Position numbers and translations under genes: made by a program. Below the pieces are notes generated by a model, which made no database searches, was not told the origin of the DNA, and was given only the letters and a program-made list of their open reading frames with translations. From Elusimicrobiota bacterium (lineage in GTDB: Bacteria; Elusimicrobiota; Elusimicrobia; UBA1565; JACRDR01), in the NCBI GenBank assembly GCA_041694815.1, contig JBGFSC010000005.1, positions 22,973 to 86,972 on the forward strand: DNA of 64,000 bases. The letters run 5' to 3'. Within the stretch, counting starts at the first letter, position 1, and every line of letters begins with the position of its first letter. Below, piece by piece: positions 895-35,552 of the stretch.

Positions 895-1317
895 TTACGC
901 GCGTTTGGGAAGCAGATGAAAATTACGGATATGGCTAGGCCGATAATGGGCGAAATCTCGATCCACCGTAAACAGGGTCTTGATGTTCTCCCTTTCCGCG
1001 ATGGATACCAGCGCGGCATCGGCAAAATCCATGGGCAAGTCCCGGTACTTTCGCATGAGCTCTCGAATTCTAGGGATCTCGTTCTGTCCCAGCTCCAAGG
1101 GGATCAGACTGCCGGATTCCATCAGCCTTAACACGGCGTCTTGGGCTTCGAAAGAGATTGACAACAAATGCAGCGCCTCCGTTACGGCCGGCCAGGCGGT
1201 GAACAGGGCTCCCTTAAAACTCTTTAATGCCCTGACGCAAGATTCATGATGCTTATCGTTGGAGCTAAAAAAGGCGATCAGGGGGCCGGCGTCAACGAGA
1301 ACGCGCTCGGCGGACAT
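895..1317 (-). CDS. vapC: PIN-domain toxin (VapC-like)
   Basis: VLVDAGPL, TEA, MDFADA, TVDRDF acidic PIN motifs; overlaps the upstream antitoxin. Confidence 0.9.
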   Translation of the reverse strand: MSAERVLVDAGPLIAFFSSNDKHHESCVRALKSFKGALFTAWPAVTEALHLLSISFEAQDAVLRLMESGSLIPLELGQNEIPRIRELMRKYRDLPMDFADAALVSIAERENIKTLFTVDRDFAHYRPSHIRNFHLLPKRA

Positions 1318-1561
1318 TTAACGCCCTGCGGAAATAATCGTGCGCGCGCTCGGAAAGGTCCGCAGGGGCGTCCCGGCAAATCCCCAGGCTGTCCTTGATC
1401 TCATCGTAGGGCGAACGCTCCGAGCGAGCGAGCTTGTTCTCCCAATAACTAATCACCGCCTCACGAATCAAGGCGGAGCGGCTGCGCGTCCCGCCAAAAC
1501 GGCGCGCCGCTCTCGAAAGAACCGACCTCTCACGCTTCTTGAGGCGAAGGGTCACGGTCAT
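1292..1561 (-). CDS. Ribbon-helix-helix (CopG-like) antitoxin
   Basis: MTVTLRL...SRSALIREAV RHH pattern, 89 aa, directly upstream of the PIN gene. Confidence 0.8.
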   Translation of the reverse strand: MTVTLRLKKRERSVLSRAARRFGGTRSRSALIREAVISYWENKLARSERSPYDEIKDSLGICRDAPADLSERAHDYFRRALNVRRARSR

Positions 1562-2017: not shown

Positions 2018-4226
2018 GTTTTCTCCTCAGTCTCAGGGAATTGACGATCACCGAAATCGAGCTCAAGGCCATCGCGGCGCCGGCGAACTGCGGCCTCAGC
2101 CACAGCCCGAATTGGGGCGCCAAGGCCCCGGCGGCCACCGGCAAGAGCAGGATATTGTACGCGAAGGCCCAGGCCAGATTCTGCCGGATGACGCGGCGGA
2201 TGCGTCGGCTGAGCTCGATGGCCTCCATCACGTGGGCTAGGTCGTGGCTGAGCAGCGTGATATCGGCCGATTCCATGGCCACGTCCGTGCCACTACCCAA
2301 GGCGATGCCGATATCCGCCTGGCTCAAGGCGGGCGCGTCGTTGAAGCCCTCTCCGACCATCGCGACTCGATGCCCCTTGGCCTGCAGCTCGGCGACGATC
2401 TTGGATTTCTCGTCCGGCAAGAGCTCCGCGTAAACGGTGGAGATGCCGACCTTGGAGGCGACCGCCTCAGCGGCGGCACGGCGATCCCCGGAGGCGAGGA
2501 TGAGGTCCAGGCCGATCGCCTTCAGGCGGGCGACCACCTCTTCGGCCCCGTCTCGGACCCGGTCGGCCAGTTGCAGCGTGCCGTAGAAAGCCCCGTCCAC
2601 GGCCACGGCGACCACGGAGCCCGCTCCCGAAAGGGCGAGCGCCGCCTGCGGGATGCGCACCCCCGACGCAGAAAGCCAGGCGGCGTTGCCCGAGAGTATC
2701 GTTTCGCCGAAAGCCGCCGCCTTCACGCCCCTTCCGGGAAAGGCCTCGAAGGAATCGAGCGCGGCCGGCGAGATATTCCGGGCGGCGGCCGCCCTCCGGA
2801 TGGCCTCGGCGAAGGGATGCTCGGAGCGCTGCTCGGCGGTGACCGCGTAGCGCAGCAGCTCGGCCTCGCTCTTGCCCGCGGCGGGTGCTAAGGCGGTCAA
2901 TTCCGGGCGCCCCTCGGTGAGCGTGCCCGTCTTATCGAAGACCACGGCATCGAGCTTGCCGACCTTCTCGAGCGTCTCGGCGTTACGCAGCAGCACTCCG
3001 GACTCGGAGGCCTTGGCCATGCCGATCATAACGGCCATCGGCGTCGCCAACCCGAGGGCGCAGGGGCAGGCCACGGCCAGAACCGAGACGAAAGCCGTCA
3101 TGGCGTTGCGAAGGCGCGGCTCCTTCCCGCGCGAGAGCCAAAACACGGCCGCGCCCAGCGCCAGCAAGAAAACAGCCGGTACGAAGACAGCGGCCACGCG
3201 GTCGACCAAGCGCTGGACTGGCGCCTTCGAGGACTGGCTGCGTTGCACGGCCTCGAGGATGCGCGAAAGCGCGGTGGTAGCGCCCACCTCCGTCACCGCC
3301 ACGGTCATAGCCCCCGTCATATTGAGCGTGCCGCCGTAGACCCGAGCGCCAGGACCCTTTTCCGCGGGGATGCTCTCTCCGGTCAAAAGCGACTCGTCGA
3401 CGGCCGAGAAGCCCTCCTCGACGACCCCGTCGAGTCCGACCTGTTCGCCGGGACGCACCAGGATGCGCTCTCCCTTGGCCACCTCGGAAAGGGGCACGAC
3501 GGCCTCCCCGGCGGGGCGCAGCACGCGCGCGGTCTTGGGCGCCTTGCGCAGGAGTCGGCGCAGGGCGTCGGAGCTGCGCTTCTTGAAGGAGATCTCCAGC
3601 ACCCTTCCCAAGGTCACCACGGTGATGAGCCCGACGGAAGCGTCGAAGTCCGGCATGCGCGAGCCAGGCGGAAGCTTTTCCGGCAAGAACACCGCCCAGC
3701 TGCCGAAGGCGTACGCGGCCCAGGTGCCCACGGACACCAGCGTGTCCATGTCCGCGCGCCGGTGCCGCAGGCTTTGCATAAGTCCTTGGTGGAAGTGCGA
3801 CCCGCAGAAGAGCTGCGCCACCGTCGCCAGAGCCCAGACGGTGTAGATGGAAAAGTTGAAGAACCCATGCGACAGGATCGCCGCCCACAACGCGGCCGCG
3901 GTGATCAAGCGCATCTTGAGGGTGCGCAATCTTTTGCGCTCGGCCTCGAGCGCCGCCTTTTCGGCATCCTCGTAGCTCGCGGCCAATCCCGCCACGGGAT
4001 AGCCGCGCTCCTCGACCGCGCGGCGGATGGCCTGTGCCGAAACCCGGGAAGAATCGAATTCGACGGAAGCCGTCTTGCTGGGCAGGTGGACCGCGGCCGA
4101 ATAGACGCCGTCGAGCCCGGACAGGGCCCCTTCTATCTTGGACACGCAGGAGGCGCAATGCATCCCCGGGATGGGGAGCACGACCCGCTCGCGCTCGCTT
4201 ACCGGCCGCTGAGGGAGCCTTGCCAC
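2007..4226 (-). CDS. copA: Heavy-metal (Cu+) translocating P1B-type ATPase
   Basis: GMHCASC HMA domain, TGES, CPCALGLA, DKTGTLT, SEHP, YN..., MALSS; start moved to GTG 4226 behind a GGAGG RBS. Confidence 0.92.
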   Translation of the reverse strand: MARLPQRPVSERERVVLPIPGMHCASCVSKIEGALSGLDGVYSAAVHLPSKTASVEFDSSRVSAQAIRRAVEERGYPVAGLAASYEDAEKAALEAERKRLRTLKMRLITAAALWAAILSHGFFNFSIYTVWALATVAQLFCGSHFHQGLMQSLRHRRADMDTLVSVGTWAAYAFGSWAVFLPEKLPPGSRMPDFDASVGLITVVTLGRVLEISFKKRSSDALRRLLRKAPKTARVLRPAGEAVVPLSEVAKGERILVRPGEQVGLDGVVEEGFSAVDESLLTGESIPAEKGPGARVYGGTLNMTGAMTVAVTEVGATTALSRILEAVQRSQSSKAPVQRLVDRVAAVFVPAVFLLALGAAVFWLSRGKEPRLRNAMTAFVSVLAVACPCALGLATPMAVMIGMAKASESGVLLRNAETLEKVGKLDAVVFDKTGTLTEGRPELTALAPAAGKSEAELLRYAVTAEQRSEHPFAEAIRRAAAARNISPAALDSFEAFPGRGVKAAAFGETILSGNAAWLSASGVRIPQAALALSGAGSVVAVAVDGAFYGTLQLADRVRDGAEEVVARLKAIGLDLILASGDRRAAAEAVASKVGISTVYAELLPDEKSKIVAELQAKGHRVAMVGEGFNDAPALSQADIGIALGSGTDVAMESADITLLSHDLAHVMEAIELSRRIRRVIRQNLAWAFAYNILLLPVAAGALAPQFGLWLRPQFAGAAMALSSISVIVNSLRLRRKHAA

Positions 4227-15066: not shown

Positions 15067-16206
15067 TCAGTCGGCCAAGAGATGCCGACTGATGATGAGC
15101 TCCTGGATCTGGCTGGAGCCCTCCCCGATCTGGTAGAGCTTCGCGTCCCGGAAATAACGCTGGACGGGATTGCGCATCAGGGCGCCGTGGGGCCCGAAAA
15201 GATCGAGAATCAAGGTGGGCGCCTTCATCGCCAGGTCCCCGCTCATGAGCTTGGCCATGGAGGCTTCCTTCGAGTAGCGCTCGCCGTTGTCAACGAGCAA
15301 CGCCGCGCGCAGCGTCAACAGGCGCGCGGCGTCGATCTCGGTGGCGATGTCCGCCAAGAGCTTCTGCGCCCCCGTGAGCCCGGGATTATCGGGGCGGATC
15401 TTGAACTGGTGCTTTCTCGGCTTGACCCAGCGGATTCCCTCCTCGAGAGCCCCGCGCGCGATGCCCACGGCCACGCCCGAGATGCCGACGCGGCCGCCGT
15501 CCAAGACGCGCATGACATCGCCGAAGGCGCGGCCCGGCTCGCCCAGGACATGCTCGGGGCCCAGGCGCACGCCGCTTAAGTGCAGCTGCGCCGTGTCCGA
15601 GCCGCGGATGCCCATTTTTTTCTCTTTCTTTCCGACCTCCAGGCCCGGCGTCCCCTTATCGCAGACGAAGGCCGTCAACGCCTTCTCCCCTGTCCGAGCC
15701 ATGATCACGTAGACCCCGGCCACGGAGCCCTGGGTGGTGAAGGTTTTCGAGCCATTGAGCACCCATCGGCCACCCTCGAAGACGGCCGTGGTCTTGATGG
15801 AGGCGGCGTCCGAGCCCGCCCCAGGCTCGGTCAGGGCCCAGGCGCCGAGCACCTCTCCCCGCGCCAGGCGAGACAGATACTTCTGCTTTTGCGCCTCGTT
15901 GCCCGTCAGGAAGATGTGGCCGGAGCAGAGGGAATTGTGCGACTCGACGGTCAGCGCCAGCGAAGCGTCGGCCCGGCCCAACTCCTCGAGGATGAGGCAG
16001 TAGCTGACCGTATCGAGCTCCTGGCCGCCGTACTTCTTGGGGAAAAAGATGCCGAACAGGCCCAATTTCTTGGCGCCCTCCACGAAATCCCAAGGGAATT
16101 GCTCCTTGATATCGTACTCATGCGCTCGGGGCAGCACCTCCCGCTCGCAGAATTCCCTGACTTTCCTTTGGATTTCGAGGTGATGGGGCTTTAATTTGAA
16201 GTCCAT
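15067..16206 (-). CDS. Acyl-CoA dehydrogenase
   Basis: [35 protein letters not shown]. Confidence 0.93.
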
Positions 16207-16249
16207 CGCCCGTCATCATAACATTTTAGTCCCCAAGCTCGCCTTTCCA

Positions 16250-16489
16250 TAGAAGCCATCCAAACCTGTCAGGCGCCGTCTACAATCACCGCGAAACTGC
16301 ATCGAGAGTCGATCTCTCTAAAACGTAAAGTTTATTTCTTGACGGCGCCTTACGCCTGCAAACTTGGCTTTCGGCCTACGCCCACATCATTCCTCGCTTG
16401 CGTACCTTTCGGGTTGCAGGTGCGCCGCATTTGTTGCCTTGGCTCGAACCCACGTTTTCGTGTTCCAACAGGTTTTTGGACGGCTTCTA
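16250..16489 (-). ncRNA. Candidate structured RNA (or MITE) directly downstream of the HNH gene
   Basis: Closing inverted repeat 16250-16269/16468-16489, internal stems 16271-16280/16341-16350 and 16355-16361/16414-16420, several GAAA/GCAA-loop hairpins on the minus strand. Confidence 0.5.
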
Positions 16490-16504
16490 AGCATAATAAT
16501 GTTA

Positions 16505-17614
16505 TTACTCGCGCTGGAAGTACGGACCGCCGAACGCCCTTCGGCCGGCCAGAAGATTATGCGGCCGACAAAACTGCCTGAGCCCCTCGGGTTGGTCCGA
16601 GGATCCGCCGAGGGCGTAAGGCAGCTTATGATCGAACTCCAACCAGGCCCGACTTTCGCAGCGCACCCCGTCCGATCCAATGAAGACGCATCGGCCGCCA
16701 TCGCGCTCATGCACCGTTTGCTTAACCGACTCCGGGATATACCGCGAACGTTTAAGGCCTTCTCGATTCCCCGTCGTCGGGCGCCGATGCTCGGGCCCGC
16801 TTTTGCGGCGGTCCCGATCGTGCCGATCCAACAACTCGCTAAGCGCCAGACCGATAACGGCGTCTGTTTCCCCGTTAGGGAATCGATGCCGCAATATTTC
16901 CTTGGCCCGAGCGATCATGTCTATGGTCGTTTTACTCGCGGCGAAGCGAAACTCGTATATCTCGGCATTCACCGTGGTCTGTAGAGTCCCGCTTACGTAT
17001 TGACCGAAAAGATCGGGATCAGCAGAAGCCTTCGCATCGACCGAAACCTGGCTTAAAGCCGGCAAGAGGGAATCGGGACTACCCAAAGCCGTCGCATCTT
17101 CTGACGCACGGCTTATAACCGGCAGAACGGCGACCGAAGCAATTTCCGTCAGGGACGGCGCCGCGACTATCCGGATCATATCCCTCGGAGGCTGCTTAGG
17201 ATTTAAGGCGGCGACAATCCGCTCGACCTCCTCCTTGCTTTTGCCGGACGCTCTTTGAAGCAGCCGTTGGTGATTTTCCGAAGTCAATAGCGGGGCAAGC
17301 ATCGTCGCGGCCGATAAGCAAATCTCGCCTTCGCCTATCATCCGCAACAGCGAACGGAATCGGCGTCCCTTGCGGGCCACAGCGATCCGACGATAAGCCC
17401 CGGCCCGCGAGTATTTAAGGATCCGCGTGCAATATTCAAAGGCCGAAGGGTACCCCTTGCTCTCGGGTAGTTGTCTGCGGTCGAACTCCCCGAGCCGAAT
17501 GAGCAGGGCTATAAGCGACCGACGCTCGTTACTTGCGGCCTCGAGCAGTTCCGCGGTCAACCGCTCATCGGTCCAAGCGGCCGTTTCTTTGAACTGCCGT
17601 TCGATTTCGTCCAT
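16505..17614 (-). CDS. HNH endonuclease-domain protein with long helical N-terminal region (DUF222-like)
   Basis: RYIP..VHERDGGRC..RC..LEFDH...GG...CRPHN at the C-terminus; GGAGG RBS before ATG 17614. Confidence 0.85.
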   Translation of the reverse strand: MDEIERQFKETAAWTDERLTAELLEAASNERRSLIALLIRLGEFDRRQLPESKGYPSAFEYCTRILKYSRAGAYRRIAVARKGRRFRSLLRMIGEGEICLSAATMLAPLLTSENHQRLLQRASGKSKEEVERIVAALNPKQPPRDMIRIVAAPSLTEIASVAVLPVISRASEDATALGSPDSLLPALSQVSVDAKASADPDLFGQYVSGTLQTTVNAEIYEFRFAASKTTIDMIARAKEILRHRFPNGETDAVIGLALSELLDRHDRDRRKSGPEHRRPTTGNREGLKRSRYIPESVKQTVHERDGGRCVFIGSDGVRCESRAWLEFDHKLPYALGGSSDQPEGLRQFCRPHNLLAGRRAFGGPYFQRE

Positions 17615-17685
17615 ATGCCTCCAGACCCATATTCCTCCATATGCCTCCACCCATATATACGAATAACAGGTCGATTTAGTTCCAT

Positions 17686-35480: not shown

Positions 35481-35552
35481 GCGCCCGTAGTGAAATGGAT
35501 ATCACGGCAGCCTCCGAAGCTGCAAGTGCAGGTTCGATTCCTGCCGGGCGCA
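35481..35552 (+). tRNA. tRNA-Arg(CCG), CCA not encoded
   Basis: Acceptor GCGCCCG/CGGGCGC, D arm GTGA/TCAC, anticodon arm GCAGC-CTCCGAA-GCTGC, T arm GCAGG-TTCGATT-CCTGC. Confidence 0.93.

Follow-up and report, generated by a model that had tools for sequence, protein, structure and literature searches.

Is the strongly folding stretch of DNA that begins just downstream of an HNH-family gene in an Elusimicrobiota genome an RNA partner of the protein encoded by that gene, or has a mobile element come to rest there? The stretch in question occupies positions 16250..16489 on the minus strand of the 64,000-nucleotide sequence analysed here, to which we refer as the window, and a first-pass annotation of the window had put forward both explanations: an HNH-associated guide or scaffold RNA and, alternatively, a MITE with terminal inverted repeats of about 20 bp. 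Our analysis supports the latter and allows it to be specified as a non-autonomous IS1182 derivative. We conclude with considerable confidence that the stretch is a defunct non-autonomous transposon (MITE) whose ancestor was an insertion sequence (IS) of the IS1182 family, namely a decayed single-core ('type A') copy that carries a second MITE nested within it. Identifying the element as a relic disposes of a misleading hint at an RNA-guided HNH system and is of little import for the window itself; the residual interest resides in the parent IS, which harbours a conserved, covarying and strand-asymmetric hairpin inside both of its ends.

The structured element and its neighbouring genes

The element is housed in a 298-bp spacer between two genes, both of which lie outside of it on the same strand. 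On one side is the HNH-family gene P0001 (DUF222-like/HNH endonuclease family; 16505..17650, minus strand), and the element starts 15 nt past its stop codon, exactly as the first-pass annotation had claimed; on the other side is an acyl-CoA dehydrogenase gene (15067..16206, minus strand), which starts 44 nt downstream of the element. The P0001 protein (381 aa) has no match in Pfam or NCBIfam, whether searched whole or split into halves. The label 'HNH-family gene' is acceptable because, among 81 homologues in the databases, PF01844 is found in 18 and PF14279 in another, because six of them are named McrA-like by their source, and because there are weak matches of its C-terminal 100 residues to isolated Cas9 HNH domains in the PDB (best E 0.038) and of one paralogue to DUF222. 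No RuvC-type domain was found in P0001, and its homologues carry the HNH domain only. These homologues are limited to the window's order (49 of the 401 phylum genomes), and in families f1–f3 they occur in 46 of 59 genomes, the window's own genome not being counted. The gene family is multi-copy, with 1–8 matches per genome, and many of its members reside on contigs of just 1.5–2.5 kb; a P0001-family gene may itself be part of a small mobile or repeated unit.

The two ends of the element are complementary to each other. The 5' and 3' terminal inverted repeats (16468..16489 and 16250..16269, both read on the minus strand) form the arms of an outer stem of 20–22 bp in which 20 positions pair; an inverted-repeat search returned 15 nt of it at 93%. 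The pairing of TAGAAGCCGTCCAAAAACCTGT (16489–16468, minus strand) with ACAGGTTTGGATGGCTTCTA (16269–16250) through a single G-U had been described correctly at the outset, save for a 2-nt AA bulge that went unmentioned. A 251-nt stretch of the minus strand folds with −97.5 kcal/mol compared to −74.4 ± 4.6 kcal/mol for 200 shuffled sequences, none of which folded as well (z −5.0). The plus strand of the element folds about as well (z −5.5), as is expected of a palindromic DNA element. The appearance of a multi-stem structured RNA is explained by complementary terminal repeats in combination with a self-complementary subterminal hairpin, since any single strand of such a sequence folds into a long structure. 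All open reading frames of at least 40 aa that overlap the element extend into its flanks, and there is no transposase gene inside. No promoter-like or terminator-like site was found in the region 16100–16600. An Rfam scan, which might have lent support to the proposed non-coding RNA, returned no match within the element at the gathering score or at E ≤ 10, nor any match at E ≤ 1 in seven well-preserved copies of the family described below. At gathering score, Rfam recognises nothing in the window but a tRNA gene at 35481–35552 on the plus strand (70.7 bits).

The inner stems that had been singled out, namely a perfect 10-bp stem (16271–16280/16341–16350), a GAGAG/CTCTC hairpin, a CCTGCAA/TTGCAGG stem and several small hairpins with GAAA or AAAA loops, are all present in the sequence. 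Their interpretation changes in the light of related copies. In the family consensus, GGC-CGAAA-GCC does not form a hairpin of its own but constitutes the 3' strand of the basal stem of the conserved core, CG-CAAG-CG is likewise no hairpin and sits in a conserved internal loop, and the bases of the supposed CACG-AAAA-CGTG hairpin are better supported in a long-range pairing that competes with it; the 7-bp CCTGCAA/TTGCAGG stem occurs in this decayed copy alone and is not a family feature. Moreover, what had been taken for a single element of 240 nt is in reality a family member of about 160 nt plus a nested insertion of 80 bp, and the perfect 10-bp stem is supplied by this second, ISAzo13-type MITE inside the first.

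Dispersal of the repeat family and absence of a link to HNH genes

Dispersed copies, which the first-pass annotation had named as the mark of a MITE, are readily found by BLAST in the window's own genome (G000), where contigs C52, C40 and C38 carry sequences with 69–76% identity over the 5' 140 nt. Alignment of these copies defines a canonical unit of about 165 nt, relative to which the copy in the window is longer by about 80 bases, located before its 3' arm. The most conserved part of the unit is a subterminal hairpin of about 87 nt, hereafter the core, and a covariance model (CM R1) built from 26 cores yields 12 matches in the own genome that correspond to about eight elements. The window contains a degenerate copy of the core (16365..16452, minus strand) that is among the weakest members of the family, scoring 58.8 bits compared to 77–100 bits for good copies, and on its 5' side the purine-rich internal-loop motifs are largely gone. 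Other type-A copies are bounded by the same terminal inverted repeat that is present in the window element, and the size of the latter (240 nt, or about 160 nt without the nested insert) compares to a family range of 165–295 bp.

The family extends well beyond this genome. BLAST detects the element in 15 of 61 relatives, and CM R1 has matches in 34 of the 151 sampled phylum genomes, representing 28 of 63 genera, with at least 106 core matches in the genome of one relative (G011) alone. An exact-pattern scan of genome contigs returned 82 stretches, and CM R1 confirmed 75 of the 80 loci that were fetched; the confirmed loci stem mostly from Elusimicrobia/Elusimicrobiota MAGs and otherwise, judging by record title, from Omnitrophota, Planctomycetota, NPL-UPA2 and Ratteibacteria. 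The five loci without a CM match (from an actinomycetote, two Verrucomicrobia, a member of the Rhodospirillales and Lentzea) look like chance. One covariance model of the core flags the repeat family in MAGs of Elusimicrobiota, Omnitrophota and Planctomycetota, which is of practical use for a repeat that breaks assemblies and mimics structured RNAs. A sub-threshold Rfam match was encountered at one further locus of G011 (L157:852–914, contig C1), where the MAT2A 3'UTR stem-loop A model scores 31.1 bits (gathering score 40, E 5e-4) outside the MITE; it is probably due to chance.

The commonest form in other genomes, designated 'type B', comprises two cores arranged head to head, 20–62 nt apart, between terminal inverted repeats. 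Six type-B copies of 295 bp in G011 differ at just two positions and have sharp ends and unrelated flanks, and this near-identity speaks for recent mobility. All six read Y|CTAG...CTAG|G, which fits either a 4-bp duplication of CTAG or a 2-bp duplication of TA; the corresponding flanks of the window element, TTAG and CTAT, are decayed. The 24-nt terminal repeat of the G011 copies has 45 matches in that genome as opposed to none for a reversed control, and all 45 occur in pairs spaced at about 200–295 bp or at contig ends; numerous contigs of G011 and G021 end within the element. The flanks of the G011 insertion sites are just 72% identical to G009, a genome of the same genus, and synteny is gone on one side, so the two are too divergent for an empty-site comparison. 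A 69-bp palindrome in G011 (C4:269241–269309) consists of two type-A terminal repeats alone, without a core, and could be either a derivative reduced to the minimum or the footprint left by an excision.

Bacterial intergenic repeats of comparable appearance are well known. The Correia elements of Neisseria (CREE/NEMIS) are intergenic MITEs of about 100–160 bp with terminal inverted repeats of about 25 bp and TA borders, they are present in many copies and fold into long hairpins when transcribed, and to our knowledge their parent transposase has not been identified. The family described here appears analogous in being an intergenic, multi-copy MITE with terminal inverted repeats that may be bordered by TA and with a long hairpin; it differs in that an IS1182 parent is identified (below), that it occurs in several phyla and that conservation is higher in its interior than at its ends, and presumably also in sequence. 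The ERIC/IRU sequences of enterobacteria are imperfect palindromes of about 127 bp that are intergenic, transcribed and distributed across genera, some of them with insertions at fixed sites, and we know of no parent IS for them. As imperfect palindromes with a cross-genus distribution they are a likely parallel, and their internal insertions recall the nested insert of the window copy; the latter differs in being a MITE in its own right, with terminal repeats and a parent IS distinct from those of the element around it.

Could the element nonetheless act as a partner RNA, transcribed together with the HNH gene or subsequent to it, and serve as guide or scaffold, in the way that IscB operates with its omega RNA? 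The position of the element 15 nt after the HNH stop codon and on the same strand is what makes the idea attractive, together with its strong folding, with G-U pairs that are favoured on the HNH-sense strand, and with a second family copy in the same genome (C38:17405–17493) that is located about 200 nt from a DUF222-like paralogue. The comparison with other loci does not bear it out. When HNH-homologue loci from other genomes were searched with 1.5-kb flanks, a real core was present in none of 29, even though both own-genome controls were found; the sole CM match among them (19.9 bits, E 0.0067) was judged to be chance. Conversely, none of the five element-rich genomes G011, G009, G010, G134 and G143 has a homologue of the HNH protein, and in genus g11 the protein is found in 22 of 23 genomes and the element in one of 18. 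The second pair in the own genome has the reverse arrangement, the element being upstream of and antisense to the gene, and the paralogue is without an HNH domain; three of the five own-genome paralogues are without an element altogether. Genes flanking the copies share no function: the own-genome copies neighbour ferredoxin, HTH, patatin, dCTP deaminase and glycosyltransferase genes, and other copies lie beside unrelated housekeeping genes including those for oxidoreductases, transporters, response regulators, kinases, a ligase and ribosomal protein S2. The locus resembles IscB omega RNA and HEARO (Rfam RF02033) in that a structured, RNA-like sequence adjoins an HNH-domain gene, but neither HEARO nor any other Rfam family is matched, P0001 lacks a RuvC-type domain, the two are not conserved as neighbours and the element is dispersed beside unrelated genes. 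Because no real core lies beside the HNH homologues examined in other genomes and the dispersed copies of the element lie beside unrelated genes, the guide-RNA reading of the first-pass annotation fails; we regard it as almost certainly wrong, and the adjacency to the HNH gene is incidental.

Within the own genome, two of about eight elements lie within 200 nt of two of the five DUF222/HNH paralogues, in opposite arrangements (C12:39480–40622 with C12:39222–39461, and C38:17729–18556 with C38:17405–17493). A rough, nominal and post hoc estimate, made by hand and not computed by a tool, puts the chance of this double adjacency at about 0.003, and its simplest reading is that of selfish DNA clustering in permissive spacers.

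The IS1182-family parent and the nested insertion

A pattern scan of metagenome contigs delivered 66 loci, among which CM R1 picked out one (L279) with two inverted cores 1.5 kb apart (1018–1105, plus strand; 2590–2676, minus strand). They reside in an IS of 1737 bp that is delimited by perfect 35-bp terminal repeats (979–1013/2681–2715), and the first 24 nt of this repeat are the terminal repeat of the G011 MITE. On NF033551, 'IS1182 family transposase' (cut-off 270), the 460-aa open reading frame between the cores reaches 400.5 bits; it also matches DUF772 (PF05598), DDE_Tnp_1 (PF01609) and DDE_Tnp_1_6 (PF13751). The 5' half of the window element is collinear with both ends of L279 through repeat and core, and its terminal repeat (TAGAAGCCGTCC...) resembles and is collinear with that of the IS (CTAGGAGTCCGTCC...).

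Homologues of the L279 transposase are encoded in 27 of 401 phylum genomes, and 28 loci were examined. One of these (L341; G393:C5:28660–32112) is an internally deleted copy with 70–78% identity, cores at 1242–1329 (plus strand) and 2386–2472 (minus strand), and a transposase gene that matches residues 20–170 and 387–459 only; its layout suggests a stage midway between the full IS and the two-hairpin MITE. L349 holds a copy that is truncated and retains the left core, and at L348 there is one core 1.3 kb away. The closest full-length homologues (L332, L333 and L359, 62–66% identity) have no core at E ≤ 0.001, and the hairpin therefore marks a sub-lineage; the parent link itself is drawn from three loci, L279, L341 and L349.

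An autonomous copy was sought in the element-bearing genomes themselves. The window's genome has neither a PF05598 match nor a homologue of the L279 transposase, and no IS1182-type transposase was found in G011 either; both MAGs are 97–98% complete, and repeats often remain unassembled. At the DUF772 loci of 20 element-bearing genomes a core was present in none of 14 at E ≤ 0.01, the four sub-threshold matches scoring 11–13 bits (E 0.16–0.78). Searches with the terminal-repeat pattern found no kilobase-spaced pair, as the 45 matches in G011 and all type-A matches in five genomes are short pairs, solo repeats or located at contig ends. The contig-end copies of G021 were considered as candidate IS ends and rejected, since the sequence that they share amounts to only about 115–177 bp and no IS lies behind it. 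A parent of the IS630 type had also been entertained; elements of this type duplicate TA within CTAG. Its transposase domain PF13358 (DDE_3) is absent from G011, G009, G134 and G000, with fragments only in G010, and the candidate was dropped once the IS1182 parent was found.

The L279 element is a recognisable relative of the IS1182 family, as exemplified by ISPse1 and by IS1272 of staphylococci, in its transposase score above the NCBIfam cut-off, its terminal inverted repeats and its length of 1737 bp. ISPse1 from Paracoccus is listed with a length of 1653 bp, inverted repeats of 16/16 and a direct repeat of 4 bp (PMC3281130); the six G011 copies would be compatible with a CTAG duplication of 4 bp. 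IS1272 and TnSha1 insert into hairpins, and some other members of the family target palindromes (PMC4923244). The present lineage differs in its 35-bp repeats, in the conserved, covarying 87-nt hairpin inside each end and in its hosts, which are uncultured Elusimicrobiota, Omnitrophota and Planctomycetota, and the window copy differs further in being a reduced one-hairpin form for which no resident transposase was found in its genome. In those parts of the literature on IS1182 MITEs and hairpins and on Elusimicrobia MITEs that were accessible to us, there is no description of this element or of a subterminal hairpin.

Taken together these forms suggest a succession of events. The autonomous parent carries a conserved hairpin of about 87 nt inside each terminal inverted repeat, facing inward, and internal deletion of the transposase gene would have given rise to 'two-hairpin' MITEs of about 270–300 bp. 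Further reduction would have left one hairpin between two terminal repeats (about 165 nt), the form seen in the window, with transposition presumably catalysed in trans by an IS1182 transposase. The window copy would then have landed in the 298-bp spacer between the HNH-family and acyl-CoA dehydrogenase genes, decayed there as its core shed much of the conserved motif, and been hit by the 80-bp MITE of an ISAzo13-type IS. In its current state it probably does nothing beyond adding a stable hairpin to transcripts that cross it.

The nested insertion (16271..16350, 80 bp, no strand assigned) possesses 10-bp terminal repeats of its own (16271–16280/16341–16350) and is flanked by TA (16351–16352) and GA (16269–16270). 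Neither the four other own-genome copies that were aligned nor any of the 12 type-A copies in alignment A3 contains it. Its end is found again in three of another 100 genomes from the order, in most cases where a contig terminates. Positions 10–39 of the insert are 90% identical by BLAST to the left end of an element at locus L210, with an inverted copy 1.3 kb away. This element (L210:1504–2801; G013:C64) is a complete, TA-bounded IS of about 1.3 kb with terminal repeats of about 30 bp, and the 403-aa open reading frame between its ends scores 451 bits on PF07592 (ISAzo13-type transposase); TA precedes all six left ends examined. On the strength of these similarities the L210 IS is likely to represent the parent family of the 80-bp insert. 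A MITE of the same kind, about 95 bp in length, is present at locus L207 (G058).

Covariation and strand asymmetry of the subterminal hairpin

The 12 type-A copies of alignment A3, derived from six genomes, fold as one long irregular hairpin of 52 pairs in which 94.9% of the paired cells are complementary compared to 77.5 ± 1.1% in shuffles (none of 500 reaching this value), and both sides have changed at 31 of the 52 pairs compared to 18.3 ± 2.4 in shuffles (again none of 500); with partners slid by 1–3 columns as a control, the fraction of paired cells drops to 34–43%. Within the core, 110 copies provide compensatory changes at 17 of the 18 pairs of the covariance model, and columns 36:83 covary between GC (43), CG (38) and AU (19), with a conserved G and A flanking the pair on both strands. 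In columns 25–42 and 77–91 of alignment A5, conserved purine-rich strands are opposed around single covarying Watson–Crick pairs; by their sequence these resemble tandem G-A pairs, and the pattern matched no known RNA or DNA motif.

The two strands of the hairpin are not equivalent. The early observation that G-U wobbles on one strand correspond to A-C mismatches on the other holds for the family as a whole, with 47 G-U as opposed to 10 A-C in the type-A alignment, although this preference does not make the element an HNH partner. RNAalifold energies are −69.6 for the sense and −48.0 for the antisense strand, and the sense strand is the more stable one in every one of the 12 type-A copies as well as 101 of the 107 distinct cores, counts that come from related copies and for which 'sense' is defined by the model; the asymmetry is hence suggestive only. 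Covariation in conjunction with greater stability on one strand suggests selection on a single-stranded form, which a reading of the core as junk leaves unexplained. The core is also more conserved than the terminal repeats, which counts against the MITE reading, as the ends of a typical MITE are more conserved than its interior.

In the parent IS the sense hairpin reads inward from both ends, and therefore any transcript entering from outside begins with the same 'sense' hairpin, an arrangement that would suit an RNA element acting on incoming transcripts or else a single-stranded DNA form. Hairpins and palindromes are already known as targets of the IS1182 family, and the core could therefore bear on the control of transposase expression or on end recognition. 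Covarying stems, G-A-rich internal loops and a compensating central pair are kept across at least four candidate phyla, and it is a tentative possibility, which we consider to fall short of probable, that the 87-nt subterminal hairpin is a functional single-stranded module, most likely of RNA, of this IS1182 lineage. If so, the hairpin could keep read-through transcription from reaching the transposase, or serve as a binding site for the transposase or for a host protein, and the MITEs would spread it to untranslated regions by the hundred, with possible effects on host mRNAs.

A related proposition is that the window copy or the family hairpin has been exapted to serve the host at the RNA level, be it as a stabiliser of the 3' end of the upstream mRNA, as a leader of the acyl-CoA dehydrogenase gene or as a protein-binding hairpin. 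The covariation (31 pairs with double changes, compensatory changes at 17 of 18 core pairs), the more stable sense strand, the conserved purine-rich internal loops with their covarying central pair and an informal tally by which many copies lie directly behind a co-oriented gene would all be in keeping with such a role. Against it, the window copy is one of the worst members of the family (58.8 bits), has lost much of the conserved loop sequence and is split by the nested insertion; the region 16100–16600 is devoid of promoter-like or terminator-like sites, the neighbouring genes share no function, and the orientation of copies relative to Pfam-supported neighbours is mixed, likewise by informal tally. 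Covariation and asymmetry can moreover stem from the biology of the IS instead of that of the host, and we deem exaptation unlikely.

Strand asymmetry would also fit a single-stranded DNA substrate, and the inverted doublets of a conserved hairpin resemble the architecture of REPINs. Both would be expected if a RAYT-type (IS200-like, Y1) transposase recognised the hairpin and mobilised the family, in the manner of REP/REPINs, as single-stranded DNA. Two of 88 open frames of at least 200 aa in core-bearing loci L045–L074 match Y1_Tnp, one directly beside a core (L070) and one about 220 nt away (L071), and Y1_Tnp is found in 18 of 20 element-bearing genomes. Examined from the side of the transposase the association disappears, as a core lies within 1.5 kb at one of 30 Y1_Tnp loci (L229), which is about the chance expectation, and G010 and G116 are rich in elements and without Y1_Tnp. 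Further evidence against this very improbable route comes from the length of the terminal inverted repeats and from the parent, a DDE (IS1182) element that shares them; descent from an IS1182-family insertion sequence remains the preferred reading. The Y1_Tnp (IS200-like) genes themselves, with frames of about 330 aa, are multi-copy in G168 (up to 15 matches), G190, G159 and others.
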